A stretch of 44,699 nt of DNA. It comes from Cyanobacteria bacterium MH1_Bin12. GTDB taxonomy: Bacteria > Cyanobacteriota > Cyanobacteriia > Cyanobacteriales > Cyanobacteriaceae. The notes beneath the pieces are model-generated. The model searched no databases, was not told the DNA's origin, and worked only from the letters and a program-made list of their open reading frames with translations. This document shows, one piece after another, positions 3,340 through 44,699 of the stretch. Positions within the stretch are counted from its first letter, which is position 1; every line of letters starts with the position of its first letter. Location of the stretch: assembly GCA_011088145.1 (NCBI GenBank), contig JAALKG010000003.1, forward strand, positions 1-44,699. Direction: 5' to 3'. Made by a program: the position numbers and the translations under genes.

Positions 3340-4861
3340 TTTTGGCGGGAGCTACACTTCTGGCTTCCAGATTACGGAAAAAACGAGCTAGTCTTATTTG
3401 TTTAGCAGGTTCGATCGCATCTAAGATTTTCAATGCTAAAATATCATCATACCAAGATTGTCGAGGACTATCCCCATAACTTGCTGTCACAATTGGTAGA
3501 AAATCTTCACAGTATTCTCCTAAAATTTCCTGACGATATTTAACTGCCTCTCGGATAGAGATTTCTTTGGGTGCATCTCCTATAAGCCAATTGTAAGGAG
3601 GTTGCCATTCCCTGACAGGACGAAGACGATCGACTTGAGTGATTACAGTTATGATAGGTATATCGGGTAATTGTTTGAGCATATCCAAATCCATCTGTAA
3701 AGCAGGATCAAGAGCGGGATTTAATAGTAAAATCACATCAACTTCATTACTATAATCAATCACCTGTGCTTGAAATTCAGGGCGATCGACTTGTTCATAT
3801 CCGGGGGTATCATATAAATATAAAGCCTCACCTGTTTTAGTTTCCCATTGATAATTTTTAATATCTGTCGTATTAGGTAAGATATTAACCTCAGCAATTT
3901 GGGCATTAAACAAAGTGTTAATTAAACTGCTTTTGCCTGCACCTGTTCTCCCAGCTAATAAAATCTTAATGGGTTTTTGCTCAATTTTGTCTGGTTTTTC
4001 TGTTTGGGCAAAAATTTCTTGTAACGTTTGAGTTTTTGCACTGGGTAAACTAAAAGTAGTCTGTTCAAATTTATCTTGGGGCAGGTTATCCCCTCCATAG
4101 AGTAACGCTGCCTGTCGTGCTAAATTTCTGAGGGCAACTTCTTTTAATACTTGGTTGAGATTGATTAATAATTCTTGATTAGCCTGTTGATTTAAAGGTT
4201 GACTGGCTAATTTGGCCGCTGCTGTTACAGGATTGATTAACCATTGCGCCCAACCCCAAGCTTTTATAAGTTTACGAGCAGAAGGTTCAAGTTTACGATA
4301 GAGTTGATAACCTTGATAACCTTGTCCAACAGTAATTTGGTTGAACACAGGAGATAATTGTTGCATCCAACGATCGAGATCATCGGTGGTGTTGCGTATT
4401 AAACTATAAGCTTGAGGGATATATATATTTAGTAAAGGATATTCTACTTCTGGATGATAAATTAAAGCGATCGCTTCTACTAAATTTCGGCATTTTTGCC
4501 CAAATCAAAGGATATCTTCCCAAAAAAGAGGTTCATCTTTACTTTCCTTGACAATTGTATTGATAACTTCTTCTAACTTAGTTAATTGATCTGAATTACT
4601 TTGAATGAAGGTAGTAGATGAGGTTTTATTTTCTAGCTCTTTTTGGGCATCAGCAATAATATTTTCGACATTATTAAATAGAGATTGCGTCCATTTAACT
4701 AACAACCATCGCCAAGCAACAAAGATTAGAACAAAAACACCCCATATCCAATTAATACCCCAACGGTGAATTTGTCAACCCGTAGCGATCGCAAAAAAAC
4801 TAATTACACCAAAGACAGGAATACTTAAAATTGCCCACTGCCACCACTTTAAACGAATCAT
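3155..4861 (-). pseudogene. Membrane-anchored P-loop GTPase (MMR_HSR1/Era-like G domain) interrupted by two in-frame TGA codons
   Basis: One reading frame runs from ATG 4859..4861 to 3155 and joins ORFs 4505..4705 and 3155..4366. In-frame TGA at 4775..4777 (IATG*QIHRW) and 4505..4507 (WEDIL*FGQK). Two N-terminal hydrophobic helices. G1 GRTGAGKSSLIN, G3 DTPG, G4-like TQVD. The 3' end abuts or overlaps the truncated SpoIIE gene. Confidence 0.7.
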
Positions 4862-7117: not shown

Positions 7118-7159
7118 GGAGAATGGAGAATGGAGAATGGAGAATGGAGAATGGAGAAC
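7118..7159. repeat. Heptamer tandem array (GGAGAAT) x5 perfect plus 1 variant, followed by a T-run
   Basis: Direct reading: ggagaat repeated from 7118, ending ggagaac, then gagatttttttt. Starts 9 nt after the stop codon at 7107..7109. Confidence 0.9.
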
Positions 7160-7305: not shown

Positions 7306-7338
7306 AATTATTAATTATTAATTATTAATTATTAATTA
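7306..7338. repeat. Heptamer tandem array (AATTATT) x4 plus a partial unit
   Basis: Direct reading. Ends 7 nt before the ATG at 7346. Confidence 0.9.
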
Positions 7339-13383: not shown

Positions 13384-13418
13384 AACTATCAACTATCAAC
13401 TATCAACTATCAACTATT
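13384..13418. repeat. Heptamer tandem array (AACTATC = CAACTAT phase) x4 plus 1 variant
   Basis: Direct reading. Ends 2 nt before the GTG start of tgt at 13421. The same unit forms the array at 21265..21320. Confidence 0.9.
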
Positions 13419-14524: not shown

Positions 14525-14526
14525 AA

Positions 14527-14559
14527 GAACTCAGAACTCAGAACTCAGAACTCAGAACT
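14527..14559. repeat. Heptamer tandem array (GAACTCA) x4 plus a partial unit
   Basis: Direct reading. Begins 3 nt after the tgt stop codon. Confidence 0.9.
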
Positions 14560-18251: not shown

Positions 18252-18346
18252 TTGCTTTTAATATCGACGGCATGACTGAAGGAATAACTGGAAGTTAAAT
18301 TAAGATAGAATTGTTGTTGGCAATCAAATGGGTATTATCTACAATA

Positions 18347-19729
18347 ATGGTTACAACAAATTGTTCTATTAAAAATTTTTTAAGCAAACAAAAAAACTAT
18401 TTTTCTACGGATGTCACTAAACCTTGGGGTTTTCGTTTACAACAACTAAAAAAATTAAAATCAGCTATTATTTCTCGACAGGATGAGATTTTAGTTGCTT
18501 TGAAAGCAGATTTAGAGAAGCCCACTTTTGAGGGTTGTTTTGAGTTAATGGTTGTACGAGACATTGATTATGCCATTAAAAATTTATCAAAATGGGTTAA
18601 GCCTCAATCCGTAAAAAGTGATCTTGCTTTGTTTCCTAGTAGTGCGAAAATTTATCCTGAGCCGTTAGGTATCGTTTTAATTATTAGTCCTTGGAATTAT
18701 CCTTTTTCTTTGATGATTTCTCCTTTAATTGGTGCGATCGCTGCGGGTAATTGTGCTATGTTAAAACCATCAGAATTATCTCCCCACACATCGACGGTTT
18801 TAACTAAATTAATTAGAGATACCTTTGCTCCTGAATATATTTACATTCAAGAAGGCGGGGTAGATGTTGCCCAAGAATTATTATCCTTAAAATTTGACCA
18901 TATTTTCTTTACAGGGGGAACCAAAGTTGGTCAAATTGTCATGTAAACCGCCGCTAAAAATTTAACTCCTGTCACCTTGGAATTAGGAGGAAAAAGTCCC
19001 TGTATTGTAGATAAAGATGTCAACTTAACCGAAGCTGCAAAACGAATTACTTGGGGTAAATTTATTAATGCTGGACAAAGCTGTATTGCACCAGATTACA
19101 TTCTAGTAGATAGTCAGATTAAAACAGATTTAATTATAGAAATTAAACAATGTATTGATAATTTTTTCGGTGATAATCCTGAACAAAGTGATGATTATGC
19201 CCGTATTATTAATCAAAAACAATTTGAAAGATTATGTCATCTTTTAACAGATGGCAAGATAATTGTGGGAGGAGAAAACAATCTTCAGAATAAATATATT
19301 GCACCGACAGTTTTAGATGATGTGTCCCTCGATTCATCTGTGATGGCAGCAGAAATTTTTGGGCCTATTTTACCAATTATAAAATATACAACTCTAGATG
19401 AAGCGATCGCTTTAATTAACAGTAAACCCAAACCTCTGGCTTTATATTTCTTCTCCAATAACAAGCAAAAACAAAACCAAATATTAAGACAAACTTCCTC
19501 AGGTGCATTATCATTCAATGAAACAATGATGCATGGAAATATAAACGATTTACCTTTTGGTGGTGTTGGAAATAGTGGTATCGGTGCATACCATGGCAAA
19601 GCTAGTTTTGATATCTTTTCTCATCAAAAAAGTATTTTTTATCGTCCATTTTGGGGGGATTTGAATTGGCGTTATGCTCCCTATAAAGACAATATTGTCA
19701 AGATATTTAGACAAATATTTACACGGTGA
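18347..19729 (+). pseudogene. Aldehyde dehydrogenase (ALDH3-like, NAD(P)+) with one in-frame TAA
   Basis: ORFs 18311..18946 and 18977..19729 are in the same frame. Read-through gives [34 protein letters not shown] with TAA at 18944..18946. Catalytic region NAGQSCIAPDY and EIFGPILP are present. The stop falls inside the conserved VM-x-AAAK-x-LTP block. Confidence 0.8.
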
Positions 19730-21126: not shown

Positions 21127-21264
21127 TTTATTTTTTTTGCCAATAGTTTTATTTTAGACAATAATAAAATCTAAGCGTTATTTTTTTGTTTTCATATTCT
21201 TTAAACCTACTAAAGAGCAATGATAAACAAGAAAATATTCGGAGAAATTAGACGACTAATCGAT

Positions 21265-21320
21265 CAACTATCAACTATCAACTATCAACTATCAACTATC
21301 AACTATCAACTATCAACTAT
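21265..21320. repeat. Heptamer tandem array (CAACTAT) x8, perfect
   Basis: Direct reading. Ends 4 nt before the ATG at 21325. Gives the artefactual QLSTINY repeats in ORF 21220..22038. Confidence 0.9.
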
Positions 21321-21324
21321 CAAA

Positions 21325-22038
21325 ATGTCCTCAATTAAAATAGTACCCGATCGTCAAATATTAGTAGATCAAGCCTCAGAATTAATTATTACCAAAATAA
21401 AAGAAGCGATCGCTAAAAAAGGAATTTGTACCATAGCCTTAGCAGGTGGTAGCACACCTAAACCCATTTACGAAAATATTGCCAAAGCCAAGTTATCTTG
21501 GGAGAAAATCCATGTTTTTTGGGGTGATGAACGTTATGTATTACCAACTCATCCTGATAGCAATTATAAAATGAGCGATGAGGCATGGTTAAGTAAAGTT
21601 GATTTTCCAGCTAGTAATATTCATCAAGTACCCACCGATGCTAATAATCCCCAATTAGATGCGGATAAACATAATCAAGAATTGTTAGACTTTTTTGATG
21701 TTGCCCAAGGTAATCCTTGTTTTGATATCATTTTATTGGGCATGGGTGATGATGGGCATACTGCTTCTCTTTTCCCTTATACAGATGCTTTAAAAGTTAG
21801 CGATCGTCTAGTTACGGTTGGTAATAAAGGAGATAATCAACGTATAACCTTTACCGTACCATTAATTAACAACGCCAACTGTGTAATTTTCTTGGTATCG
21901 GGAGCGAATAAACAACAAGCCTTACTCGAAGTTTTTAGTCAAGAAGCTGATAGTAATCAATATCCCAGTAAGCTAATTCAACCTCAAGGAGAATTAATTT
22001 GGTTGATCGACCAAATAGCAGGAGCTAAAATAGAATAA
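21325..22038 (+). CDS. pgl: 6-phosphogluconolactonase
   Basis: From MSSIKIVPD. Blocks LAGGSTPKPIYE, VFWGDERYV and LLGMGDDGHTASLFP. The upstream in-frame extension is only the heptamer array. Confidence 0.85.
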   Translation: MSSIKIVPDRQILVDQASELIITKIKEAIAKKGICTIALAGGSTPKPIYENIAKAKLSWEKIHVFWGDERYVLPTHPDSNYKMSDEAWLSKVDFPASNIHQVPTDANNPQLDADKHNQELLDFFDVAQGNPCFDIILLGMGDDGHTASLFPYTDALKVSDRLVTVGNKGDNQRITFTVPLINNANCVIFLVSGANKQQALLEVFSQEADSNQYPSKLIQPQGELIWLIDQIAGAKIE

Positions 22039-30875: not shown

Positions 30876-31386
30876 TTATTCTGATAAATTATTCTTTTTG
30901 AAGATGATCAATATTTACGATTCGATCTTATTACTGTTTTCATCTTCTTAGTTAAAGATTCTCTGATGACCTTTGATCTTAGGTTAGATAGACAATTTTT
31001 ATTAAGTCATTATACCTAATATTTCTCAATTTACTGATTAAAAAACATAGAAGTCTAAGTTATATTATCCTTTGATAAGATTATTTAAAACAAGTAATTC
31101 AAGATAAAATTAAGACTTTTTACCACTAATAATAAACAGATAAAAAAACATTTTAACTATTAAATTAAAAAGCTAAAATAAATTTACTTTTTAAAGTATC
31201 AGTAATCAACTGCATAAAGCTTATATTTTTACTAGAAAACAACTAAAAATATGCTAAAATTAAGACTGAAAATATTAGTCTTAAAGGCTTAATTGTTAGG
31301 AGCTATCAATATCTCAGATTCGTATCTGAATCCTAGGAATGAAAACATAGAGTAGCACGAATGTAACTTGCTCTCTAAAATTCATT

Positions 31387-31421
31387 ATCAAATATCAATT
31401 GTTAAATATCAAATATCAAAT
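31387..31421. repeat. Imperfect heptamer array (AAATATC family)
   Basis: atcaaatatcaattgttaaatatcaaatatcaaat immediately precedes the gyrA ATG at 31422. Translated artefactually as [12 protein letters not shown] in ORF 31368. Confidence 0.7.
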
Positions 31422-33995
31422 ATGACCTTTAGCCAAGAACGCATAGTACCGACTAATCTGACCAACGAAATGTCTCAGTCTTACCTCGAATACGCCATGA
31501 GCGTAATTGTTGGTAGAGCATTACCCGATGCCAGAGATGGGCTTAAACCAGTTCACCGTCGCATCCTCTATGCCATGTATGAATTAGGTTTGACCGCTGA
31601 TCGTCCTTTTCGTAAATGTGCGAGGGTAGTAGGTGAAGTGTTAGGTAAATATCATCCTCACGGTGATACAGCAGTGTACGATGCTTTAGTGAGGATGGCT
31701 CAAGATTTTTCCATGCGTAATCCTCTCATTTCAGGTCACGGAAATTTCGGTAGTATCGATAATGATCCTCCCGCGGCAATGCGTTATACCGAGTGTCGTT
31801 TACAGGCTTTATCTTTCGATGGTTTATTACGAGATATTGAAGCAGAAACCGTTGATTTTATCGACACTTTTGATGGTTCACAACAAGAGCCAGTAGTTTT
31901 GCCAGCCAGAGTGCCTCAATTGTTATTGAATGGTGCTACGGGTATTGCTGTGGGTATGGCAACCAATATACCTCCTCATAACTTAGGAGAATTGATTGAT
32001 GGTGCAACCGTCATGATTCATAATCCTGAAGTGACGGATACCGAATTAATGCAATATATCCCTGCTCCTGACTTTCCCACGGGAGCTCAGATATTAGGTC
32101 GTCAAGGGGCAAAAGATGCCTATACCACAGGTAGAGGTTCAATCACCATGCGGGGTGTGGCGACGATTGAAACTGTTAGCGCACCGGGTAGACAGGATAA
32201 AGAAGCTATTATTGTTACCGAATTACCTTATCAGACAAATAAAGCCTCATTGATCGAAAAAATTGCTGATTTAGTCAACGATAAAAAAATTGATGGTATT
32301 TCTGATATTCGTGATGAAAGCGATCGCAATGGTATGAGAATTGTTATAGAATTAAAAAGAGATGCTTACCCTACAGTCGTCTTAAATAACCTCTACAAAC
32401 AAACTGCCATTCAAAGTAATTTTGGGGCAAATATGTTGGCATTAGTCAACAATGAACCACAATTATTAACTATCCGTCAGTTTTTACGAGTATTTCTTGA
32501 TTTCCGTGTCGAAGCGATTACTAGACGTACCCAATATTTAAAACGCAAAGCAGAACAAAGAGACCATCTGTTACAAGGTTTATTAATTGCTTTGAGTAAT
32601 CTTGATGCGGTAATTCGCTTAATTCGTGGTGCGGCAGATACGGCTTCAGCCAAAGAAGAATTAATTACTGATTTTGAGTTATCCACAACTCAAGCTGATG
32701 CTATTTTACAAATGCAACTGCGTCGTTTAACCGCCTTAGAAGCAGAGAAAATAGAAGCAGAACATCAAAGTTTAATGGAGGAAATCGAAGACTTAAAAGA
32801 TATTCTTGCCCGTGAAGAAAGAATTTATGGAATTATCGAAACAGAATTACAAAGCATCAAAGACACCTATGCGACTCCTCGTCGTACAGAAATTGTTCAA
32901 GGAGAAGGTGACTTAGTTGATATCGATTTAATCCCTAACGAGCAGGTGATGATCTTATTAACCCAACAAGGCTATTTGAAAAAAATGTTGGTTAATACTT
33001 TTGAGGCACAAAATCGTGCTACCAGAGGTAAGTCGGGAGCGAAAATTAAGGATAATGACGTTGTTGAACATTTTTTGACAGGATGTGATCACGATAGTGT
33101 TCTATTTTTCAGTGACAAAGGTGTTGTTTATGTCTTGAGTGCCTATCAAATTCCTTCTAGTTCTCGTACAGCAAGAGGAGTACCCATCCTCCAACTATTA
33201 CCTATCTCTTCAGATGAAAAAATCACCTCGATTATCCCTGTAAGCGAATTTAACGAACAGGAATACTTGATAATGCTAACCAAAAAAGGTTTTATTAAGA
33301 AAACAAGTCTCTATGCTTTCCGTAACATTCGTCGTAATGGTTTGATTGCGATATCTTTAGAAGAATCAGATCAATTACGTTGGGTAAGACTCGCCACCGA
33401 AGCAGATAGTGTCTTAATTGGTTCTTGTCGTGGAATGTCTATTCATTTTCATGCAGATAAGAGTCAATTACGTTCTCTGGGGCGTACTGCCAAGGGTGTT
33501 AAATCCATGAAACTACGCAAGGGTGATGAAATTATCAGTATGGATATTTTACCATCACAGATTGTTGCCAATATTGCCCAAGCAGATAATGATGAGCAAG
33601 ATGATGATAGTGGTGAAGAATTGACCAATGATACTAGCAAAGATGCTCCTTGGGCATTAGCTGTAACTACTAGCGGTTACGGAAAAAGAGTGCCTGTATC
33701 TCAATTCCGTCTACAAAGAAGAGCGGGTATTGGAGTTAAAGTGATTCGTTTCCGTAAGGCCACTGAGGAGTTAGCTTCTTTACGAATTGTCAATGGTGAT
33801 GATGAGTTTATGATTATTACTACTCGTGGTATTATCGTTCGTTGCGATGTTAATGCTGTTTCTTTACAGTCTCGTAATGCTAGTGGTGTGATTATTCAAA
33901 AACTGGATAAAGATGATGCGATCGCAACCATCGCTTTAGTGCCTCCTTCTGATCAGAATGACGAAGAAGAGGAACAAGAAAATGAGGAATCATAA
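31422..33995 (+). CDS. gyrA: DNA gyrase subunit A
   Basis: From [43 protein letters not shown], active-site Tyr context AAMRYTE, the C-terminal beta-pinwheel repeats and an acidic tail. Confidence 0.93.
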
Positions 33996-34051: not shown

Positions 34052-34381
34052 TCAACTAGGGGTAAAAAGAGAAGGATTAGGAGAAAGTGCTTTAAAGATA
34101 GCCTCATAAGCAGTTAAACCTTGACGAACACCTGTATTCACTACCGAACGAACTGCGGCGAATAAATCTTTTCCCCAATCAGAACGAAAACCATTGGTCA
34201 CTTTTCGGAACACTGTACTCATCCTGATTGCTTGTTCACTACTATTATTTGTTGGCGGTATGGAACTGTCTTCCAAAAATAAAAACAGGTTTTCCTTTAA
34301 TTCACGATAACGTTTTAATAAACGAATTCCATCATCATGATCAGGATTTAAACTTAAGACTTTGCTCAATCTTCTTTTCAA
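34052..34381 (-). pseudogene. IS66-family-like transposase C-terminal fragment
   Basis: LKENLFLFLEDSSIPPTNNSSEQAIRMSTVFRKVTNGFRSDWGKDLFAAVRSVVNTGVRQG resembles the C-terminal P-x-(T/D)NN-x-(A/S)E-x-x-(I/L)R block of IS66-type transposases. Only ~109 aa remain, and upstream it is fused to an unrelated IS630 frame. Confidence 0.55.
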
Positions 34382-35007
34382 ATCATAACCATAGTTTAAT
34401 ATGGACTCCTTTTTCCTCTAGCTCTTGTGCTTGATGATATAACTTACAAATTCTCCTGACTTGTTCTCTAAATAATTTCTCATCTTCTACTTCATGGTTT
34501 AACCAATATTTACTTCGATGAGGCTTTAATTCTCCCCGATTTTAAAAAACGACCAATGGTAGTTGCAGAAATATTCTCAGCAATACCTCGCTTAATTGTT
34601 TCTCGGACAAGTTCTTTTCTGGTCCAATGACTTAAATATTCAGCCGGAGTTTGGCATGCTAATGGGATTATTTGGCATATTTGCTCGGCTTCAAACTTTC
34701 CTGGACTTCCACTTCGAGGTCTATCTGCCAAGATTTTTTTGACTATTTCTTTCCATTTGTGAGGTTCAGTTATAAATCTTTGCAACTGGGAATAATTCTC
34801 GAGCCATCTTTGTCTCCATTTAGCAATAGTTTCTGGCGATAACCTTAAATTTTGACTAATGGTTTTGTTGTCTAATCCTTCGGATGCTTTGAGTATAATT
34901 TTACTTCTCAAAACTAAGCTGTGGTTTATTTCTCGACTGCGACATAATTGAGCGAGAAGTTCTTGTTCTTTTGGCAAAAGCTGAATTGCTTTAGCTGTTC
35001 TGGGCAT
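34382..35007 (-). pseudogene. IS630-family transposase, N-terminal HTH part with frameshift, truncated
   Basis: ORF 34510..35007 encodes the HTH/winged-helix N-terminus (ISQNLRLSPETIAKWRQRW..., TIGRFLKSG). After a frame change at about 34520 the sequence continues ELKPHRSKYWLNHEVEDEKLFREQVRRICKLYHQAQELEEKG and then breaks off at about 34385. The DDE domain is absent. Confidence 0.65.
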
Positions 35008-35544: not shown

Positions 35545-36843
35545 TTAGAAATTAAATTTTGCAGATAATCCATAATGGTCAGATAAATCTCGATGATTAG
35601 TTCCCTTATCAAATACTCCTAAAGGATCTCCCACGGCAGGCATGTTATAAGTTGTCGAATTTTTAAACTTCATCACACTATAACTGACATTAGATGGCAT
35701 CGCTCCGTTTTTGCCGACAAAAATGTAATCTAACCACTCTTGTTTTTCTCCTTTATATCGATATTTTGCTACTGAATTGTTTTTAGGATCAAAAGTATAT
35801 CCAGAGGGGCGATTACCATAAAGACTAGCATTTAATGTTGACAGAGCATTTACATATTCATTACCATCTAGTTTTGGATCGAAATTAAGATCTCCAGAAA
35901 CAATTATTATTTCATTTTTAGCCTTGGCATTGGGAGCTTTACTTTTGATAAAACTATTAAGTTGTCGCAGTTGTTTAGTTCTTACTTGTGCTTCTTTTCT
36001 TCCTCGACTTGACTGAAGATGCGTACCAAAAATATGAATTATTCGGCTATTTTTTTGCACTTTCGCATACATCACACCTTTATTGGATAAACAATCACTA
36101 CCACTACAATCATTGAAAACTAACATATCAGTGGCTAATATCGGTAAGCGACTTTGGATGAAAACACCTCCATCATCCAAATTTCCACTTTTGTCAACTA
36201 CTTTAGTCAGAAATGGATAGCCAATTAGAAGGAGTCCTCCTTGCAAGGTTTGTCGTGCTGAGTTGAGAAATGCTTCGTTGATAACAATTACATCCCACGT
36301 CCCATTTTTTTGAATGGCTTTGGGTATGGCACCAGCACGGAATTTTTGTTTGTGGTTAGGAAAAGTTGTACTATCTAACAACATGGCATTGTAATTGAGA
36401 ATCGAAAACTGTATCTTTTCTGCTGGACGATTAGTTGTTGTGGCAACATTGCTACTAGAAAAGCTTGTAATGGTATAAAGTTTACCTTTTCCCACCCAAA
36501 TTACTGCTTTATTACGAAGATCAAGTTGTATTTTTAGACCATCGGATTTGGTTAAATATACAGATCCATCATCTCTACCTGTTTCTTTAAAAGTAAATTG
36601 TCCATCAGCATTTTTTTCAATCCAAGAACCATCTGACTGTTGTCGAAAAAATCCTCCTGAATTGCCATATTTTACCTCCGTTACATTACGACCATTGACA
36701 TTATTTTGTGCGATCGTCAAAGCAGATGAAGTATTTGTTAAAGCTTCGGGTAAGAATGAAGTACTTATTCCTCCATAGATAAATATTGTAGAAAAAAGCA
36801 GTGGTAAATATTTCTTTAATGTCATAATGTTTTTGACCGCCAT
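35545..36843 (-). CDS. Secreted endonuclease/exonuclease/phosphatase-fold enzyme, sphingomyelinase C-like, with extra N-terminal domain
   Basis: 432 aa, signal peptide (LPLLFSTIFIYGG). The C-terminal ~290 aa carry the neutral-SMase catalytic contexts VIVINEAF (Glu), IFGTHLQS (His), SGDLNFDP (Asp/Asn) and DLSDHYGL (Asp-His). GYTFDPKNNSVAKYRY...WLDYIF parallels Bacillus cereus SMase (YTWDATTNSIAKYNF...YLDYII, from memory). Confidence 0.7.
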   Translation of the reverse strand: MAVKNIMTLKKYLPLLFSTIFIYGGISTSFLPEALTNTSSALTIAQNNVNGRNVTEVKYGNSGGFFRQQSDGSWIEKNADGQFTFKETGRDDGSVYLTKSDGLKIQLDLRNKAVIWVGKGKLYTITSFSSSNVATTTNRPAEKIQFSILNYNAMLLDSTTFPNHKQKFRAGAIPKAIQKNGTWDVIVINEAFLNSARQTLQGGLLLIGYPFLTKVVDKSGNLDDGGVFIQSRLPILATDMLVFNDCSGSDCLSNKGVMYAKVQKNSRIIHIFGTHLQSSRGRKEAQVRTKQLRQLNSFIKSKAPNAKAKNEIIIVSGDLNFDPKLDGNEYVNALSTLNASLYGNRPSGYTFDPKNNSVAKYRYKGEKQEWLDYIFVGKNGAMPSNVSYSVMKFKNSTTYNMPAVGDPLGVFDKGTNHRDLSDHYGLSAKFNF

Positions 36844-37194
36844 AAATTATTGAATCTTGAAATAAATATACTGAGTAAGATGATTAAAAAATTGAAATTT
36901 TATTCATCCATTAAGAATTATTCGATCGATAAGTTAGGGAACAATAAAATATTCCTCACAATTAGAAAATAATGCTATAAATAAATCTAATCTATTCTAA
37001 TCGTAAATGAAATGATTAAAATAGCCCAAAAATTTTGTCAACTTTAGATAACCTTATTTTTGTTTTTGAGAATTTTATTTTACCGAAAAACTAGATATAA
37101 CAATACTTTTAGCTGATTTTTGATTTCAATAAATTATCGGTATTCAAAATAATAATTAAAAAATGTAACAAATTGAACAGAAAAGTTGACAAAG

Positions 37195-37223
37195 TTGACG
37201 TTTTAATGTCTGTATGTTAATCT
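37195..37223 (+). promoter_or_regulatory. Promoter candidate for nblA
   Basis: TTGACG (37195..37200), 17-nt spacer, TAATCT (37218..37223). The -35 lies in a tandem AAAGTTGAC AAAGTTGAC direct repeat (37182..37199). A GTA-N8-AAC near-NtcA motif is at 37165..37178. Confidence 0.35.
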
Positions 37224-37255
37224 TAAACAACTAGGCCTATTAAGGAGTGAATGAT

Positions 37256-37423
37256 ATGGATATGTCAGCCAGTCTTACCTTAGAACAAAAATTCAAGTTA
37301 CAAGTACTCAAAGATCAAGTAAAAGATTTGAGTAGGGAACAAGCTCAAGATTATTTAATTGAAGTGTTTCGGCAAATGATGGTTAAAGATAATGTAATGA
37401 AGCAACTATTCAAGAATGCTTAA
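37256..37423 (+). CDS. nblA: Phycobilisome degradation protein NblA
   Basis: Not in the ORF track (55 aa). MDMSASLTLEQKFKLQVLKDQVKDLSREQAQDYLIEVFRQMMVKDNVMKQLFKNA matches the NblA pattern LSLEQ.F.L......V..MS.EQA...L.....QMM. AAGGAG Shine-Dalgarno 7 nt upstream of the ATG. Confidence 0.85.
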   Translation: MDMSASLTLEQKFKLQVLKDQVKDLSREQAQDYLIEVFRQMMVKDNVMKQLFKNA

Positions 37424-37611
37424 ATTTTCGGACGTTGTTGTATTCAAAACAGCATTTAAGAGATAACTTTACTCAAATAAGAAGTATCTTTTACCTAATT
37501 TAGATACGCTGTCAGTTAATTATTTTGTCAACCCTTTATTTAAATTCAATCTCTTCTTTAAAATAATTGTCATGATTATTTGTTTATGATTAACTAGCAA
37601 CAACGTCATTC

Positions 37612-37632
37612 AGAATTGAGAATTGAGATGAA
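37612..37632. repeat. Heptamer array (AGAATTG) x2 plus a variant
   Basis: tcAGAATTGAGAATTGAGATGAAt. Same dispersed motif as at 25251. Confidence 0.8.
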
Positions 37633-37873
37633 TCCCTACTTCCCAAGTCTTCGGTGAAAATTACCGACCGCTGAAGTTGGAGGCTTGAAATTTAGATTTT
37701 AATTTTTCTTCTTTTCTTCTTAAAAGAAGAGACTTGTATCCTTATGTTTCTGGTCATTCTCAAAAAATTTAATCACTGATTTTTTTGCTATTTTAAGTTT
37801 TAAGTTTATTCTGAAAGATTATCGCTTATGATTTTTCTCAGTTAATCAGCCAAGATTTAGTGAGAAACAAAGA

Positions 37874-39331
37874 ATGAATAACAAACAAATAGAAACTCCT
37901 TTAATTAAGAGATTAAAAATATTAGCTGATAGACAAGAAGCACCTTTTTACGTACCAGGTCATAAAAAAGGTAATGGCATCAGTAAGCAATTACAAGAAT
38001 TAATGGGTAGTCAAGTTTTTCGTGCAGATTTACCCGAATTACCTGAATTAGATAATTTATTCGCTCCTGAAGGAGTAATTAAAGAAGCTCATGATTTAGC
38101 TTCGGAAGCTTTTGGGGCTGATCAAACTTGGTTTTTAGCTAATGGTACAACTAGTGGTGTCATTGCTGCTATTCTGAGTACTTGTGGAGAAACAGACAAA
38201 ATAATTTTACCGAGAAATGTTCATCAGTCAGCAATATTTGGTTTAGTTTTATCAGGGGCAACACCAGTTTTTCTTGAACCCAAATATAATTCTGATTTTG
38301 ACGTTTGTGAAGCTGTGTCTGTGGAACAAATTACTCAAGCTTTGCAAATTCATAATAATATCAAGGCAATTTTACTTGTTTCTCCTACTTATCATGGTAT
38401 CTGTGGAAATTTGACCCAGATTATTGATCTGGCTCATCAATATAATATTCCTGTAATAGTTGACGAAGCCCACGGTGGACATTTTTATTTTCATCCCCAA
38501 TTGCCTTTATCTGCATTAGAAGCAGGGGCAGATGTAGTAATACAATCAACTCACAAGGTATTAGGGGCAATGACTCAAGCATCCATGCTACATTTACAGG
38601 GTACTTTAATAAAACCTAGTCGTATCAATCAAGCTTTACAAATGATGCAATCTTCTAGTCCTAATTATTTATTGTTGGCTTCTTTGGATGGTGCTAGACA
38701 ACAAATGGCGATGGAGGGAAAATATTTATTAGGCAGAACTTTAAATTTGGCAATGATTGCCAGACAAGAGTTGGCTAAATTAGATTACCTGTCCGTTTTA
38801 GATTTTAAGGAAAGTTCATCAAGTTTCTGTGATTTGGATCAGACTAGATTGACTGTTAATGTTAGTCAGTTGGGCTTGAGTGGTTATGAAGCTGATGAGA
38901 TTTTTAATGAACAATTAGGGGTTACTTGCGAATTACCTTCGTTGCAAAATCTGACTTTCATTATTTCTATTGGTAACACACAAGAAGATATCGATCGATT
39001 AATTGAGGCTTTTCAACAACTGAAAACTTTTGCTAAATGTGATTACAAATCTTATTTTTGTTTACCAATATTACCTGCATCTCAATTAAAATTAACTCCT
39101 CGTCAGGCTTTTTGGACAGATAAAAAAATTGTCAGTAAGGATTTGGCTGTAAATCAAATTAGTGGTGAAACTATTTGTCCTTATCCTCCTGGTATTCCTT
39201 TGATTATGGCAGGAGAAGTGATTTCGATCGAAGCTTTAAATTATCTGACCAAGATTATCAATCTCGGAGGTGTGGTTACAGGTGTTAGTGATAATAGTTT
39301 AAATACCTTACAAGTTTTAAATTTTGAATAA
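37874..39331 (+). CDS. Orn/Lys/Arg decarboxylase-family PLP-dependent enzyme
   Basis: 485 aa. PFYVPGHKKG at the N-terminus and PLP-lysine context IQSTHKVLGAMTQASMLH, typical of the OKR_DC_1 major domain. Confidence 0.8.
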   Translation: MNNKQIETPLIKRLKILADRQEAPFYVPGHKKGNGISKQLQELMGSQVFRADLPELPELDNLFAPEGVIKEAHDLASEAFGADQTWFLANGTTSGVIAAILSTCGETDKIILPRNVHQSAIFGLVLSGATPVFLEPKYNSDFDVCEAVSVEQITQALQIHNNIKAILLVSPTYHGICGNLTQIIDLAHQYNIPVIVDEAHGGHFYFHPQLPLSALEAGADVVIQSTHKVLGAMTQASMLHLQGTLIKPSRINQALQMMQSSSPNYLLLASLDGARQQMAMEGKYLLGRTLNLAMIARQELAKLDYLSVLDFKESSSSFCDLDQTRLTVNVSQLGLSGYEADEIFNEQLGVTCELPSLQNLTFIISIGNTQEDIDRLIEAFQQLKTFAKCDYKSYFCLPILPASQLKLTPRQAFWTDKKIVSKDLAVNQISGETICPYPPGIPLIMAGEVISIEALNYLTKIINLGGVVTGVSDNSLNTLQVLNFE

Positions 39332-39352
39332 TTGTTAATTGTTAATTGTTTG
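39332..39352. repeat. Heptamer array (TTGTTAA) x2 plus a variant
   Basis: ttgttaa ttgttaa ttgtttg. Fills the 23-nt gap between two convergent stop codons (39329..39331 and 39355..39357). Confidence 0.85.
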
Positions 39353-39354
39353 AC

Positions 39355-41238
39355 TTATACCTGACTTCTTTCAAGACGATGAAGAATAATATTAGCAAGT
39401 TGTTTGCCTCCAAGAGGTTTTTGGACAAAGTCATCAGCACCGCTGGTTAACAGTTGGGCAATAACATCTCGATCAGTATAAATACTGATATATAAGATTG
39501 GTAATTTGTACCAGTAAGGATGACTACGAAGGACTTTACACAATTCAATTCCGCTCAAGTAAGGCATTTCAATATCTAGTAAGAGTAAATCAGGATTAAC
39601 TGCTTGAAGTACATCCCAAAATTGTCGAGGATCATCTAGTGTTGTGAGTTTAAATCCCCAAGGTTGGAGTTGAGAAGGTAAAAATCTTAATAATTCCACA
39701 TCATCATCAACTACCATAACTTTTTTACCTAAAGTAGAACGTTGAAGGGCTTGTTGGCAAAAATTAATCGCTTGTTCGGGAGTTACTGGCTGTTTGAGGT
39801 AAAAAGTACCACCATGTTGAGCAACTAATAGTCGATCGAAAAAGCGATCGCGATCAGCCATAATCACCACTGGTATTGATGGGCTGAAAGAATTTAGTTC
39901 TGTAATTAAAGACAAATTCTCCTCCACATATATAGAATCGGATGTAGATTCAGCAAAAGATAATCTCAGGAAAACAACATTAGGAAATTCGTAACTTTTT
40001 AAACTTTTAAGCCAATTTTTTGCCCACTGAATAGAAGAAGTGATCTTGGTACGCATTCCTTCATGAATAGCTTTTTGTTTTAACAATCGAGTAAATTGTT
40101 GATCATCATCAATAATTAATAACAAAGGAGAATTTTCTGTTATTTGTCCCGATATTTGATTAAATAAATTGTCTTCAGTAGTTAATTCTATTTGTAGATC
40201 ATTTAAAATATTTTCAAATTGCAATACTTGTTGGGTATCATCTTCAATATTGTGGTGTAACAGTTGTTCTAAATCTTTAGCTAAATTAGAACCTTCGTCA
40301 AAGCCAAAAATACCCACTGTTCCAGCCAATTTATGAGCGATAGATCGAGCTTCTTCTTTTTTATTATGAGTCAATTCGCCTGCTTTTAACGCCTGTAGAG
40401 TTTCTTGTAAAGTGTTCAACTGCTGATTACTTTGGTGTCGATATTTTTCCCAAGCAGTCGCCAAAGCGGCTAGATGTCGAGTTTGCTTTTGAAACATCTC
40501 TGGTAATGTTTGTCTATCTTCGATGGGACAAGATAGAAAATTGTCTGCCAAATTATGATCTTGAGGTAAAGATTTTAGACAATATCCTCTACCCCGTAAA
40601 GTTTCAATGGGATCCTCTGATATACCCACTAACTTTAATTTTTGTCGTAAATATCTCAGATGCGATCGCACTGTTGCCTCTGATGGATATTCTACTGATG
40701 ACCAAAGATTTTCGATAATATCTTCAATACTAAAAACCTCTTGACTATGGCTCATAAACAGTTCTAGCAATTGATATTCTTTACTCGTCAATAAAATTAA
40801 TTCTCCTTTGTAAGTCACTTGACAACTACAAGTATCCAATTGTAAATCACCCCATTGTAATACAGGCACAGGATTAAAATTTGAACGACGTAATAACGCT
40901 CTTATTCTTGCCCCTAATTCTTCTACATTAAATGGTTTACACAGATAATCATCCGCTCCTGCATCTAATCCCATAATTTTTTCTTGATTGCTATGACGAG
41001 CAGTTAATAAGATAATGGGCATCTTATAGCCATAAGAACGAAAACGTTTACATAAACTAATTCCATCGAGTTTAGGTAAAGACCAGTCAAGGATAATTAA
41101 ATCATAATTATAGGTAGAACCATAAGTCCATCCATGTTCTCCATTAAAAACGGCATCGAAGTTATAGTTTTTTTCACCCAGAGTTTTTTGAAGTACATCA
41201 ATTAAAATTTCATCATCATCAACTAGTAATATTCTCAT
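39355..41238 (-). CDS. rcaC: RcaC-like multidomain response regulator: REC - OmpR winged helix - HPt - degenerate REC - REC
   Basis: 627 aa. REC1 with acceptor Asp at residue 51 (LIILDWSLP) and KPF. wHTH (LTSKEYQLLELF...ETLRGRGYCL). HPt (SIAHKLAGTVGIFGF, His about 302). A receiver-like segment lacking the acceptor Asp (VVFLRLSF). C-terminal REC (LLLLDIEMP...KPL). Same layout and similar length as Fremyella diplosiphon RcaC. Confidence 0.7.
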   Translation of the reverse strand: MRILLVDDDEILIDVLQKTLGEKNYNFDAVFNGEHGWTYGSTYNYDLIILDWSLPKLDGISLCKRFRSYGYKMPIILLTARHSNQEKIMGLDAGADDYLCKPFNVEELGARIRALLRRSNFNPVPVLQWGDLQLDTCSCQVTYKGELILLTSKEYQLLELFMSHSQEVFSIEDIIENLWSSVEYPSEATVRSHLRYLRQKLKLVGISEDPIETLRGRGYCLKSLPQDHNLADNFLSCPIEDRQTLPEMFQKQTRHLAALATAWEKYRHQSNQQLNTLQETLQALKAGELTHNKKEEARSIAHKLAGTVGIFGFDEGSNLAKDLEQLLHHNIEDDTQQVLQFENILNDLQIELTTEDNLFNQISGQITENSPLLLIIDDDQQFTRLLKQKAIHEGMRTKITSSIQWAKNWLKSLKSYEFPNVVFLRLSFAESTSDSIYVEENLSLITELNSFSPSIPVVIMADRDRFFDRLLVAQHGGTFYLKQPVTPEQAINFCQQALQRSTLGKKVMVVDDDVELLRFLPSQLQPWGFKLTTLDDPRQFWDVLQAVNPDLLLLDIEMPYLSGIELCKVLRSHPYWYKLPILYISIYTDRDVIAQLLTSGADDFVQKPLGGKQLANIILHRLERSQV

Positions 41239-41449
41239 TAGTTTTAAATTAATTAGGACTTATCAAGGACATATGGCAATTGAAAATATTGAAAATTGAG
41301 TATCAAGTTTAGAAGTAGTATTAAAGATTTGAAAAAACATAATTAAAAATTAAATTATCTTCTTTGCTTATTGATAAAAAAGTTTTTAGGGTTTACATTT
41401 TTAATCTCGGTATAAAATAAAACATTCTGTTTTAACTCCTATGGTTAGT

Positions 41450-41830
41450 TTACTTATCCCAATTCAACATTTTGCTCACTCTACCGGCTAAAGTCATAGA
41501 GTTAAATGGTTTGGTAATGACACCAGCTACCCCTAAATTTTGAAACTGTTTTTTGTCTGCTGCCTGGGTTTTAGCTGTCAGAAAAATCACTGGAATTAAT
41601 TGAGTTTGAGAATTCGCTTTCAAATTAGATAAAGTTTTTATTCCGTCCATTTCTGGCATCATTACGTCTAAAAGAATGGCATTGGGCTGTTGATTTTCAG
41701 CGATCGCAATTCCTTCTATTCCCGAAGAAGCAATCAAAACTTGCCAACCAACTTCAATTTCAATCCCTATTTGGACAACTTCTCGAATTGCTTCTTCGTC
41801 ATCAATTAGTAAAATACATTTATCACTCAT
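41450..41830 (-). CDS. Single-domain CheY-like response regulator (RcaF-like by position)
   Basis: 126 aa. DDEE, ILLDVMMPEMDG, TAK and KPF receiver motifs. Its start overlaps the kinase stop (ATGAGTGA). Confidence 0.8.
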   Translation of the reverse strand: MSDKCILLIDDEEAIREVVQIGIEIEVGWQVLIASSGIEGIAIAENQQPNAILLDVMMPEMDGIKTLSNLKANSQTQLIPVIFLTAKTQAADKKQFQNLGVAGVITKPFNSMTLAGRVSKMLNWDK

Positions 41831-43925
41831 CGAATGAACCTCCTTTATTAATTAATAAGGGCAGAGTAAAATAAAAAGTACTACCTTTTCCTAAACAACT
41901 TTGAGCCCAAATTTTGCCGCCATGCCCTTCGATAATCTGACGGCAAATTGTTAATCCTAAACCTGTACCTCCTTTTTTACGAGAATCAGAAGAATCAACT
42001 TGTTGAAAACGCTCAAAAATTGTTTCTAGTTGGTTTAGAGGAATACCTTGTCCTTGATCTCTGACTTTAAAGGTGACATAGTTGATCGATGTCTGTCTTT
42101 TTTCTTTTTGTTCGATGGATTCAACACTTGCAGATAGAAAAATCATGCTTTCTGGTGGAGAAAACTTGATCGCATTACTCAACAAATTGGTTAAAGTTTG
42201 AACTATATAGTCATAGTCAGCCCACACCAGAAAATTGACTGTTTGACTAAATAATGTGACTCCTCTTTCATTGGCCATAGTCTGCATCGCCTGACAAGCT
42301 TCAAGCATTAATTCATTTGCCTGACAGGCTTTTTTGTTCATTTTGACTTTGCCTGATTGGATACTTTGTAAATCAAGAACGTTATTAACTAAGCGAACGA
42401 GGCGATCAGTTTGTTCGTCAGCGATGGTAAGCATTCTGTGTCCTTTCGGGGAAAGATTACCCAGTTTTCCTGTGGCTAAAATTTTCAGAGAACTATGAAT
42501 CGAAGTTAAAGGAGTTCGCAATTCGTGACTAACTACAGAAATAAACTCATCTTTCATTCTTTCGATCGCTTTTCGATCACTAATATCACTAGTCAGAGCA
42601 AAAAATCCTTTGATAACCGCTTTTTTTTGTTTATGAATATGGGGTATGTAGGTCACATTAACAGTGTGAATATTCCCATCTTGAAAAGTCATATCTTTTT
42701 CGTAGGTTACTGTTTCTCCTGATAAAACTTTATCAATATACTGTTTCATTTTTTGGTATTCTTCTTTGCCATGAACTTCTTTCAAATGAGAACCGTAAAT
42801 TTTGTGAGGAGAAAATCCGAACCATCTTTGGTAAGCTTGATTATTAAAACGATAAGATTGGTGTTTATCAACATAAGCGATTAAAACTGGTATACCATTA
42901 GCAATCAAACTCAATTTTTCTTCGCTACGACGCAAGGCGGCTTCCGCCTTTTGACGATCGTTAATTTCTTCTTGTAAACTGCGGTTGGCTTCTCTTAATT
43001 TTGCTGTTCGCTGGGCGACTAATTCTTCTAAATTTCCTCTTAACTCGGCTTGAGATAAAGCAATGCCAATTTGAGCGGCTAGTTGTTGCATTAATTCCAA
43101 CTCAAAGTTTTGCCATTGCCTAGTATTTGTACATTGATGAGCAATTAACAAACCCCAAAGTTTGGGCGTTCTTTTTCCTTTGCCTTTTTTGGGATTCAGA
43201 TTTTGTAATATGGGTACGATTAATTTAGCTTTTACATTCCATTCGTGGAGAAATTCGATCAGACAATCAATTAAATTAGCTTGTTGACTTTCTACATCAG
43301 CGATCGCTTTTACTCTTCCTTTTTCATAAAGTTCTCTGTATTCTTCAGGAAAAACTTCTTCAGGAAACTCAACACCTAAAACAGGGCGACAATTAGGTAA
43401 AACAGCTTCGCTAATTGCCATACCAGTACCATTAGCAAAAAGTTGGTAAATCAGCACTCGATCGGCTTTGAGGATTCTTTGTACTTCGGTAACAGCAGTC
43501 TGGAGAATCTCTTCAAGTTGAAGGGCTTGACTAATTTTAAAGGTAACTTCAGAAAATAATTTGACTCTTTGATGTTGACGGTGAAGTTCTTCTTCAGCTA
43601 GTTTAAGTTGAGTTATATCTGTGAGAATTAACAGTTTATAATTCGGTAATAGATCCTTAACCAGTTTATATTTTAAGGTTTTATTTTTACCATCGAGATA
43701 GCGAATTTGAATTCGTTCCTTATTGTTACTATTTAAAGTACCAATTAAAAAATCGAAAATCGATCGTCCTAATAATTCTTCTTTTGTACAACCAAATAAA
43801 TTACAAGCACAACTATTAACTTCTACAAAACAATCATGATCATCGACAATCATAATGGCTTCAAAAGAATTTTCAAATATAGCTTGAAATAATTTTTTTT
43901 CTGGAAATGACTCTAATCCTTCCAT
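41823..43925 (-). CDS. PAS-GAF-PAS sensor histidine kinase with phytochrome/cyanobacteriochrome-like GAF (RcaE-like by architecture and synteny)
   Basis: 700 aa, soluble. N-terminal PAS. GAF with ADRVLIYQL...AISEAV...YEKGRVKAIADV...IDCLIEFLHEWNVKAKLIVPIL...WGLLIAHQC. Second PAS. H-box SVVSHELRTPLTSI. N-box LLSNAIKFSP. G-boxes DQGQGIP and GTGLGLTICRQI. Confidence 0.7.
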   Translation of the reverse strand: MEGLESFPEKKLFQAIFENSFEAIMIVDDHDCFVEVNSCACNLFGCTKEELLGRSIFDFLIGTLNSNNKERIQIRYLDGKNKTLKYKLVKDLLPNYKLLILTDITQLKLAEEELHRQHQRVKLFSEVTFKISQALQLEEILQTAVTEVQRILKADRVLIYQLFANGTGMAISEAVLPNCRPVLGVEFPEEVFPEEYRELYEKGRVKAIADVESQQANLIDCLIEFLHEWNVKAKLIVPILQNLNPKKGKGKRTPKLWGLLIAHQCTNTRQWQNFELELMQQLAAQIGIALSQAELRGNLEELVAQRTAKLREANRSLQEEINDRQKAEAALRRSEEKLSLIANGIPVLIAYVDKHQSYRFNNQAYQRWFGFSPHKIYGSHLKEVHGKEEYQKMKQYIDKVLSGETVTYEKDMTFQDGNIHTVNVTYIPHIHKQKKAVIKGFFALTSDISDRKAIERMKDEFISVVSHELRTPLTSIHSSLKILATGKLGNLSPKGHRMLTIADEQTDRLVRLVNNVLDLQSIQSGKVKMNKKACQANELMLEACQAMQTMANERGVTLFSQTVNFLVWADYDYIVQTLTNLLSNAIKFSPPESMIFLSASVESIEQKEKRQTSINYVTFKVRDQGQGIPLNQLETIFERFQQVDSSDSRKKGGTGLGLTICRQIIEGHGGKIWAQSCLGKGSTFYFTLPLLINKGGSFDE

Positions 43926-44043
43926 AATTCTTAAAAAAGATTAACAAAGCTTAAATCATTGTAACTCAAGGATACTTTTCTTAAAAGGATTTAAGAAATT
44001 GGGCAATCATCTTTACATAACTGAAATATTATCCATAATACTT

Positions 44044-44148
44044 GGTGTGCAACTTAAAACGAAAGAATTAGGTTTTCAGAAAAAAATTTAAATTTATTGA
44101 TTTTTAAAAGCTTTTAAAATCAATGGTCACAATTCAGTTGCACATAGG
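44044..44148. mobile_element. MITE-like ~105-bp dispersed repeat, copy B
   Basis: Second copy of the element at 1741..1844, with the same TGTGCAACT inverted termini. Lies between the kinase start (43925) and the pcyA stop (44180). Confidence 0.6.
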
Positions 44149-44179
44149 GTATGGTTACTAATTTTATAAGGTTGGTTTA

Positions 44180-44699
44180 TTAATGAACATAGGGAAAATC
44201 AAATAACATTTTACTCATATATCGATCAGTCCAGACTTCACCTAAAGACTTTTCTAGAACCCTTCTGGTTTTATCATTCTGTTGCTGTTTATTGCAGTAA
44301 TAATGCTGTGCTGACAAAATTTCGTCTTCTTCAATCTCAGATATTACCGCAGGTGTAGAAGTGGCAATTTGACAGTGTAGATTTAAAATATCATTAACGC
44401 GATCGAGAAAAAGTTCTTCTTCTTGATAATCAGCTAAACGGGCAAATAAACAAAATTGAGAAAAAATATCTCCCCACTTTGGTAAATCACGAGGATGAGC
44501 AAAATTAATGCTAGATAAATTGCTTAAAGCTTGTTGATAAATTGAAGGTAAAATTCGTTGCCGATTCATAGGTGAAAGATCCACTATTGCCGCCCCAATT
44601 CCGTCTTGGCTCCCGACTAAATCGACTCCAAATATCGGTCAAGGATAATTAGGGTCTGCTGAAAAAGTATCAACTTTCATCTGGTACTACAACTGTGAA
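44180..44699 (-). pseudogene. pcyA: Phycocyanobilin:ferredoxin oxidoreductase, 5' end outside the window, with in-frame stop codon(s)
   Basis: The C-terminal half matches my memory of Synechocystis PcyA (LPKWGDIFSQFCLF, HYYCNKQQQNDKTRRVLEKSLGEVWTDRYMSKMLFD). The same frame continues upstream of ORF 44180..44584 as ADPNYP*PIFGVDLVGSQDGIGAAIVDLSP, with TGA at 44639..44641. A further in-frame TAG lies at 44687..44689, near the window edge. Confidence 0.75.

Follow-up and report, generated by a model that had tools for sequence, protein, structure and literature searches.

A probable RcaE-RcaF-RcaC-type phosphorelay beside a pcyA remnant in an uncultured sponge-associated cyanobacterium

Do three adjacent genes near one end of a contig from the uncultured Cyanobacteria bacterium MH1_Bin12 encode an intact relay for sensing the colour of light, or are they what is left of one? 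The stretch of DNA that raises this question, hereafter the window, spans the whole 44,699-bp contig JAALKG010000003.1 (assembly GCA_011088145.1), which has a GC content of 34% and whose sequence was found in four sponge-metagenome DNA runs. A sequence-only reading of the window had proposed that a kinase, a small receiver and a multidomain regulator, encoded in this order, form a relay of the kind known as RcaE-RcaF-RcaC, which governs type 3 chromatic acclimation in Fremyella diplosiphon; relays of this kind distinguish green from red light and adjust the light-harvesting antenna accordingly. The follow-up analysis bears this proposal out, namely through the match of the kinase GAF domain to that of F. 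diplosiphon RcaE (E 2e-71), the conservation of all photochemically critical residues, the E-F-C gene order and the linkage of the cluster to phycocyanin (cpc) and pcyA genes in relatives. We put at roughly 85% the probability that an intact RcaE-RcaF-RcaC phosphorelay, orthologous to those of type 3 chromatic acclimation, is encoded here. The orthology is shown at the level of sequence, domain architecture, residues, synteny, a DNA repeat in relatives and a common DNA-recognition helix; bilin binding, the photocycle, the path of the phosphoryl group and the genes under control in the source organism would follow by analogy with the characterized systems. In this sense the locus is an ordinary further copy of a well-known system in an uncultured sponge-associated cyanobacterium, and its mildly unusual points are confined to the sponge habitat, a broken pcyA and a conserved pseudo-receiver.

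Kinase, small receiver and regulator

The open reading frame (ORF) call returned the three genes on the minus strand exactly where they had been reported, including the overlap between the kinase stop and the receiver start. The features of the cluster, all on the minus strand, are as follows.

41823..43925, minus: putative rcaE orthologue, 700-aa sensor kinase (ORF call, Pfam)
43056..43517, minus: GAF domain, predicted bilin-binding, of the green/red cyanobacteriochrome type, aa 137-290 (PDB match)
43263-43265, minus: codon of the GAF chromophore Cys221 (alignment to the F. diplosiphon RcaE GAF)
41450..41830, minus: putative rcaF orthologue, 126-aa single-domain receiver, acceptor D55 (Pfam Response_reg, 85 bits)
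39355..41238, minus: putative rcaC orthologue, 627 aa (Pfam, 18-homologue alignment, AlphaFold2)
40903-41232, minus: first receiver (REC1), aa 3-112, acceptor D51 (Pfam)
40576-40803, minus: OmpR winged helix, aa 146-221, recognition helix EATVRSHLRYLRQKL (Pfam)
40192-40452, minus: histidine phosphotransfer (HPt) domain, aa 263-349, H302 in IAHKLAG (Pfam)
39739-40125, minus: pseudo-receiver, aa 372-500 (sub-threshold Pfam, AlphaFold2)
39361-39723, minus: second receiver (REC2), aa 506-626, acceptor D555 (Pfam)

The 700-aa kinase carries, in the order given by Pfam, PAS, GAF (aa 137-290, 69 bits), PAS_4, HisKA and HATPase_c domains, with the phospho-acceptor H467 lying within the H-box SHELRTPL. 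A scan for transmembrane segments found none in the kinase (maximum Kyte-Doolittle 19-residue mean 1.1), and because it lacks a hydrophobic segment the protein is predicted to be soluble, which gives it the make-up expected of an RcaE: a soluble protein running from GAF through PAS to a HisKA/HATPase pair with a phospho-accepting His. When the GAF region was searched against the whole PDB, the GAF of F. diplosiphon RcaE led with E 2e-71 (242 bits, 8k9o) and 6e-61 (208 bits, 7ckv), ahead of the next-best cyanobacteriochrome at E 2e-39 (138 bits) and of phytochromes at no more than 60 bits, so that in this search the domain stands nearer to characterized RcaE than to the GAFs of other cyanobacteriochromes or of phytochromes. 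The two GAF domains are 64% identical across 186 aa, and among full-length homologues of the kinase the top identity is 84%, with at least 120 at 63% or above.

The peptides that the sequence-only reading had quoted from this GAF are present, as is the Cys-Leu pair from which it concluded that the kinase might be a divergent or non-photosensory relative, Leu replacing the His that usually follows the chromophore Cys. That conclusion does not hold up, since the GAF of F. diplosiphon RcaE itself reads AECLVEF at this place in the alignment, with the chromophore Cys of helix H4 followed by Leu. In the RcaE structure paper Glu217, Leu249 and Lys261 form a protochromic triad, Leu249 and Phe252 make a hydrophobic lid above the bilin, and the L249H mutation disturbs the photocycle (bioRxiv 10.1101/2020.12.08.414581). 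We mapped the F. diplosiphon numbering onto the window; the numbering is validated by all 13 residues named in the structure paper, each of which has the residue type stated there, and the chromophore Cys was added to them as Cys248 by inference. With it, the triad is kept in the window as E190, L222 and K234, and 12 of the 14 pocket residues are identical (F. diplosiphon Y187, F214, E217, F219, P220, Y223, Y227, C248, L249, F252, K261 and H285), the two substitutions being L209 to V and R233 to K. Judged from the alignment, the Cys-Leu pair is a signature of RcaE and hence a positive marker, and by analogy the window kinase would bind phycocyanobilin at Cys221 and undergo a green/red photocycle.

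The start of the small receiver gene overlaps the stop of the kinase gene by 8 nt (ATGAGTGA), which shows the arrangement of putatively translationally coupled genes. The 126-aa product has the receiver residues D10, D11, D55 and K107 and is 77-78% identical to the products of the genes in the same position in the two nearest relatives (L082 and L083; the prefix L numbers the related loci). A single-domain receiver stands between rcaE and rcaC in 13 related loci as well, and the window gene therefore has both the domain content and the position of an RcaF.

The regulator yields Response_reg, Trans_reg_C, Hpt and Response_reg matches in Pfam, that is, the N-terminal receiver, the OmpR winged helix, the HPt domain with its His and the C-terminal receiver with its Asp that together characterize RcaC. 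The sequence-only reading had further described a degenerate receiver without an acceptor Asp between the HPt domain and REC2, and this layout has been borne out by Pfam, by a scan of the lone domain, by AlphaFold2 and by an alignment of 18 homologues. Scanned alone, aa ~370-500 match positions 2-106 of 111 of the Response_reg profile (E 7e-5, 23 bits), which is under the gathering score; in the AlphaFold2 model, built with the 18 homologues and having a mean predicted local distance difference test score (pLDDT) of 79.7, aa 372-500 form a (beta-alpha)5 unit with a pLDDT of 83-92. The end of its beta-3 is R425-L426, and the 18 homologues have R, K or N there and never Asp, whereas in the same alignment D51 is invariant and H302 and D555 are conserved in at least 90%. 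The pseudo-receiver motif SIPV..IAD.D.F..RL.VA..G is among the best-conserved stretches of the regulator. A small novel point is that the fifth domain of RcaC and its paralogues would be this strongly conserved pseudo-receiver, which lacks the acceptor Asp; to our knowledge, the published four-domain descriptions of RcaC make no mention of it.

Full-length homologues of the regulator number at least 120 at 54% identity or above, with 96-100% of the length aligned, and come from Pleurocapsales (Stanieria, Xenococcus, Hyella and Pleurocapsa), Trichodesmium/Okeania/Dapis, Mastigocoleus, Rivularia and many metagenomes; one of them is annotated 'Protein RcaC'. An identity as RppA was considered and set aside, as the NCBIfam match is barely above its cutoff (257 vs 250 bits) and its score adds up two receiver domains.

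Look-alike regulators, linked antenna genes and the upstream repeat

The five-part layout had been called rare in the sequence-only reading, and it turns out to be widespread. In a scan of species-representative genomes, 590 tblastn-confirmed stretches were found to encode relatives of the regulator, the best 80 of which were kept as loci. In 11 of these 80 loci an RcaE-type GAF (232-262 bits against F. diplosiphon RcaE) is encoded just upstream of the regulator and in the same orientation, whereas in the other 69 the best GAF reaches 136 bits at most, so that the scores are bimodal and 69 loci with the same five-part layout have no RcaE-type GAF nearby. Since homologues are abundant and most loci lack an RcaE-type GAF, the layout is neither rare nor diagnostic. 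The unlinked regulators (among loci L012-L080, e.g. L016, L025, L051 and L058) make up a large paralogue family of the same layout, spread across many Nostocales, Oscillatoriales and Leptolyngbyaceae genomes.

What does set the RcaE-linked regulators apart is the recognition helix. The form ATVRSH(L/I)R occurs in all of them and in four close relatives (L008, L009, L010 and L027), whereas the 35 unlinked paralogues that were aligned carry another one, e.g. ENAVRAHIK or EEAVTAHIK in place of EATVRSHLR. With its linked-type helix, the window regulator should bind the same DNA as the RcaE-linked regulators. In a rough neighbour-joining tree the RcaE-linked regulators fall together, with the window regulator beside its nearest relatives L082 and L083; tree and recognition helix alike place it as an orthologue of the RcaE-adjacent regulators as opposed to the paralogues. 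As for the four close relatives, L010 has its upstream side cut by a contig end, and in L027 the upstream flank extends over just 2.35 kb, in which neither rcaE nor rcaF occurs. The other two, L008 (10001-11854) and L009 (7002-8822), have an RcaC-type recognition helix with no rcaE, rcaF, cpc or pcyA in the fetched flanks, and since these regulators stand alone, rcaC seems sometimes to be separated from its partners.

The closest relatives of the kinase are 83-84% identical to it, and one of them (L082) lies on a 1.42-Mb contig in the gene order cpcB-cpcA-linker-linker-cpcD-pcyA-(DUF4288)-rcaE-rcaF-rcaC, its cpcB, cpcA and pcyA products exceeding the cutoffs of the NCBIfam equivalog models of C-phycocyanin beta, C-phycocyanin alpha and PcyA. 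The order cpcBA-linkers-cpcD-rcaEFC recurs in L001-L005, L011, L084 and L085, with pcyA present or absent: a linked pcyA is missing in L002, L004 and L011 and only a fragment of it is left in L005, and all four keep cpc-rcaEFC. A second clade, represented by L015 and L036, has the arrangement rcaEFC-pcyA-cpcBA-linkers. The published red-light-activated targets of phosphorylated RcaC are a phycocyanin/linker operon and pcyA (PMC8256508, PMC4752607, PMC5737509).

Three of the relatives' loci show further peculiarities between or within these linked genes. A divergent allophycocyanin-like alpha/beta pair, below the NCBIfam cutoffs, lies between pcyA and rcaE in L007 (2074-6256) and L005 (5623-6621), both Pleurocapsales-like loci, and the interval of L007 also holds a catalase and a PerR-like regulator. 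The contig of L083 starts inside pcyA (1-444), and its first 13 codons, KILATGKLGNLSP, are identical to a stretch just past the H-box, in the HisKA region, of the window RcaE; these codons are joined to pcyA near codon 117, by an assembly chimera or a rearrangement.

Aligning the regions upstream of cpcB revealed a conserved direct repeat of the OmpR type, TTGCACA-N4-TTGCACA. In each of nine loci (L001-L005, L011, L015, L082 and L085) the region upstream of the linked cpcB contains a single exact match to the corresponding pattern YTGCAY-N5-YTGCAY, located on the coding strand at a distance of 120-331 nt; L036 has a G-variant, GTGCACA-AGAT-CTGCACG, ~430 nt upstream of cpcB. In L015 and L036, whose arrays begin with pcyA, the pattern occurs again ~60-90 nt upstream of pcyA, and a scan of those RcaE-linked loci found it nowhere else. 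The RcaE-negative loci, amounting to 1.23 Mb, contain it only 4 times, one of these (L027) being upstream of cpcB beside rcaC. TTGCACA-N4-TTGCACA is probably the published L-box. A different motif, TTGTTA-N5-TTGTTA, had been suggested as the L-box by the sequence-only reading; it gave degenerate matches only (1-2 mismatches), which are enriched upstream of cpcB and vary from locus to locus, and in the scan of related loci it had no match upstream of pcyA. It was dropped because the TTGCACA repeat is far better conserved.

The mechanism of the RcaEFC system has been published (PMC4752607, PMC8256508, PMC13492139). Transferred to the window, it would run as follows: red light would convert RcaE to its green-absorbing, kinase-active form in a protochromic photocycle that would need E190, L222 and K234; the active kinase would autophosphorylate at H467, and the phosphoryl group would pass from there to D55 of RcaF and on to the HPt H302 and the D51 of RcaC; phospho-RcaC, bound to TTGCACA-N4-TTGCACA, would switch on the phycocyanin-plus-linker operon, together with pcyA, and switch off phycoerythrin genes; and green light would bring about the reverse. 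The order of transfer inside RcaC and the role of D555 are reportedly known from work of the Kehoe laboratory.

The broken pcyA, the competing readings and the rest of the contig

Upstream of the kinase gene the contig runs into a truncated pcyA and ends there. The two features concerned are these.

44180..44653, minus: pcyA remnant (phycocyanobilin:ferredoxin oxidoreductase), corresponding to ~codons 92-252 of intact relatives (Pfam/NCBIfam)
44645..44699, no strand: contig end stretch, a higher-depth unitig (depth 80 vs 29 for the main contig, 2.7-fold)

The sequence-only reading had placed the cluster directly beside a bilin reductase gene, of which the PcyA-type sequence stands and the intact gene does not, the similarity starting near codon 92 and being interrupted by a TGA close to the contig end. 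The ORF 44180..44584 encodes only the C-terminal half of PcyA (positions 96-228 of the Pfam profile Fe_bilin_red), and the NCBIfam PcyA score of the remnant is 157 bits, under the cutoff of 206. An in-frame TGA at 44639-44641 takes the place of a conserved Leu: the frame of the remnant reads ...FSADPNYP*PIFGVDLVGSQDGIGAAIVDLSPMN, the asterisk marking the stop, vs ...MFPHPNY(P/A)LPIFGVDLVG... in intact relatives (L082, L084 and L085), and similarity to PcyA ceases near codon 92. Contigs from three runs, representing two samples, show the same letters as the window throughout the region of this stop, and an exact 35-mer from the remnant found no match in JGI metagenome contigs. The last 55 nt contain a further in-frame TAG (44687-44689) and no similarity to PcyA; a second unitig, of depth 47, branches off at 44645, and hand translation of its first 30 nt, which are all that was shown of it, gives no PcyA sequence. 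As the high-depth unitig joins two contexts, the contig end appears to be a repeat or a strain branch point. By its sequence, then, the linked pcyA is a remnant or pseudogene.

Several observations weigh against our reading. With the linked pcyA broken, the ancestral cluster is disrupted in this genome; the 44.7-kb contig has no phycobiliprotein genes and hence no target operon, which agrees with the sequence-only reading, where no phycoerythrin or inducible phycocyanin operon had been seen in the window; the TTGCACA repeat was not found in the window; the run search found no RNA run carrying the window sequence; and there are other signs of pseudogenes on the contig, namely a split aldehyde dehydrogenase and insertion sequence (IS) fragments, so that genome erosion could be under way. 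The truncated pcyA with its in-frame TGA, backed by contigs from three runs, the contig end at a repeat or branch point, the other pseudogene and IS fragments and the absence of the TTGCACA repeat could mean that the relay has been orphaned or is decaying, no longer controls antenna genes and is heading for loss or has been rewired. We consider this unlikely. All three ORFs are full length with every catalytic and chromophore residue intact, the kinase is 83-84% identical to relatives with the full cluster, and the ratio of kinase to regulator conservation equals that of other intact pairs. Moreover, the retention of cpc-rcaEFC without a linked pcyA in L002, L004 and L011, and with a fragment only in L005, makes this pcyA copy seem dispensable, so that its loss need not matter. 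The contig ends inside pcyA, which accounts for the absence of the TTGCACA repeat from the window and puts out of view the expected phycocyanin operon, which every relative has at this place. A related scenario, in which the ancestral cpc-pcyA-rcaEFC supercluster was broken by a repeat at the contig end, pcyA is dead and the intact relay is maintained for other outputs, has a small but tangible chance of being correct; if true, the relay might, e.g., do no more than repress phycoerythrin, or might act on genes outside the antenna, in a habitat whose light is filtered by host tissue.

Other readings concern what the kinase senses and whom it addresses rather than the state of the cluster. CcaS is another member of the green/red GAF subfamily, with the protochromic residues in common, and the window could accordingly encode a CcaS/CcaR-like or other green/red cyanobacteriochrome system that is active in green light and controls only phycoerythrin or rod-membrane linker genes. 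This is very improbable, as the partners of the kinase are a single-domain receiver and a REC-wHTH-HPt-REC (receiver, winged helix-turn-helix, HPt, receiver) regulator, not a simple CcaR; the GAF groups with those of the F. diplosiphon RcaE type by a margin of ~100 bits, as judged from locus scores with no CcaS sequence among them; and the operon linked to the cluster in relatives is that of phycocyanin, not phycoerythrin or cpcL. CcaS has a transmembrane helix, and the window kinase has none. That the GAF might be non-photosensory, with the kinase responding to something other than light, draws on the missing His after the chromophore Cys, which phytochromes and most cyanobacteriochromes possess; this is scarcely credible in the face of the identical Cys-Leu pair in the crystallised, photoactive RcaE, the disturbed photocycle of L249H and the conserved pocket residues.

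The other genes of the contig are housekeeping cyanobacterial genes, including sasA, gyrA, purA and one for a glucosylglycerol-phosphate phosphatase. The aldehyde dehydrogenase is divided between two adjacent ORFs on the plus strand, 18311-18946 and 18977-19729, which match Pfam Aldedh positions 36-222 and 234-461 and probably represent a pseudogene. On the minus strand, 34052-34381 encodes a 109-aa fragment that aligns with no more than the end of an IS66 transposase, and 34510-35007 a 165-aa protein with HTH_32, HTH_29 and HTH_23 matches; both are mobile-element fragments, and a gene-poor stretch follows them. The minus-strand gene 35545-36843 encodes a 432-aa protein with a hydrophobic N-terminus and a clear match to bacterial sphingomyelin phosphodiesterase (TIGR03395, E 1e-43, below cutoff), which could be a host-interaction enzyme in a sponge-associated cyanobacterium; the ~1 kb beside it, 36844-37873, has no ORF of at least 80 aa. 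At the other end of the contig, the genes for a SpoIIE-type phosphatase (1909-3339, plus strand, partial profile) and a GTPase (3155-4366, minus strand) overlap by 185 nt on opposite strands, which probably means that one end is miscalled or one gene degraded. Perfect or near-perfect tandem heptamers occur at 7118-7158 (GGAGAAT), 7306-7338 (AATTATT), 13384-13417 (AACTATC), 14526-14559 (AGAACTC), 21263-21323 (ATCAACT) and 31386-31423 (TATCAAA); they are mostly intergenic and are similar to the short tandemly repeated sequences known from filamentous cyanobacteria. The one at 21263-21323 falls within the 5' end of the ORF 21220-22038, the start of which is therefore probably miscalled. Promoter and terminator scans of 39000-44699 gave the same counts as shuffled sequence, and a search of the window for Rfam features and tRNAs returned none.

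Significance and comparison with known systems

The locus leaves the current understanding of the RcaEFC system unchanged and extends its range to a cyanobacterium that is uncultured, low in GC (34%) and derived from sponge metagenomes, which suggests an ability of such symbionts to adjust their antenna to the light colour that reaches them. RcaE homologues have been reported in 27 of 65 surveyed genomes, and RcaE and/or CcaS orthologues in ~15% of cyanobacterial genomes. Three rules for annotation emerge: a Cys-Leu pair in the GAF domain is a positive marker of RcaE and not a defect; the layout REC-wHTH-HPt-REC does not by itself identify an RcaC, whereas the helix ATVRSH(L/I)R together with an adjacent RcaE-type GAF does; and physical linkage of the relay to its phycocyanin/pcyA targets, which carry a TTGCACA-N4-TTGCACA repeat, is the usual case.

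The nearest characterized counterpart is the RcaEFC system of Fremyella (Microchaete) diplosiphon, with which the window shares the E-F-C order, the GAF-PAS-kinase core and the single-domain receiver. At the level of the kinase, Cys248, the triad Glu217/Leu249/Lys261 and the lid residue Phe252 of F. diplosiphon RcaE are conserved in the window GAF; at that of the regulator, RcaC likewise has a receiver, an OmpR-type DNA-binding domain, an HPt domain and a C-terminal receiver; and a phycocyanin/linker operon and pcyA, the published red-light-induced targets, are linked to the clusters of the window's relatives. Unlike F. diplosiphon, the window has a pseudogene for its linked pcyA and its targets off the contig. 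The regulator of the window falls into a subclade of marine/benthic origin, with Pleurocapsales, Trichodesmium-like, Mastigocoleus and Rivularia members, which is only about 36-41% identical to the second RcaE-linked clade (L015/L036/L040); we infer, from higher GAF identity only, that F. diplosiphon belongs to the latter. In the subclade of the window rcaE is preceded by the cpc operon and pcyA, whereas in the other clade these lie downstream of rcaC, and the kinases of L015, L036 and L040 align only from ~residue 100 on, their N-terminal region being divergent.

Compared by description, the RcaEFC system of Synechococcus sp. PCC 7335 follows the same logic, in that phospho-RcaC, bound to L-boxes, acts as activator of pcyA and cpc2 and as repressor of a green-light operon (PMC8256508); there the repressed operon is pebAB, whereas no phycoerythrin-related gene is visible in the window. 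The CcaS/CcaR systems of types 1, 2 and 7 likewise combine a green/red protochromic GAF with a histidine kinase output that controls antenna genes, but their regulator is the simple OmpR-type CcaR, they are active in green light and they bind the G-box, whereas the window has RcaF, the five-domain RcaC, a soluble kinase and the linkage to phycocyanin. The unlinked RcaC-like paralogues have the length and layout of REC-wHTH-HPt-(pseudo-REC)-REC and are 36-43% identical to the window regulator, but they lack an RcaE-type GAF within 10 kb, have another helix and occupy separate branches of the tree. Finally, RfpA/RfpC/RfpB, which serve far-red light photoacclimation (FaRLiP), also join a photosensory kinase and a small receiver to a multi-receiver DNA-binding regulator; RfpA, however, is a red/far-red knotless phytochrome encoded in the FaRLiP gene cluster, whereas the GAF of the window kinase matches that of RcaE.

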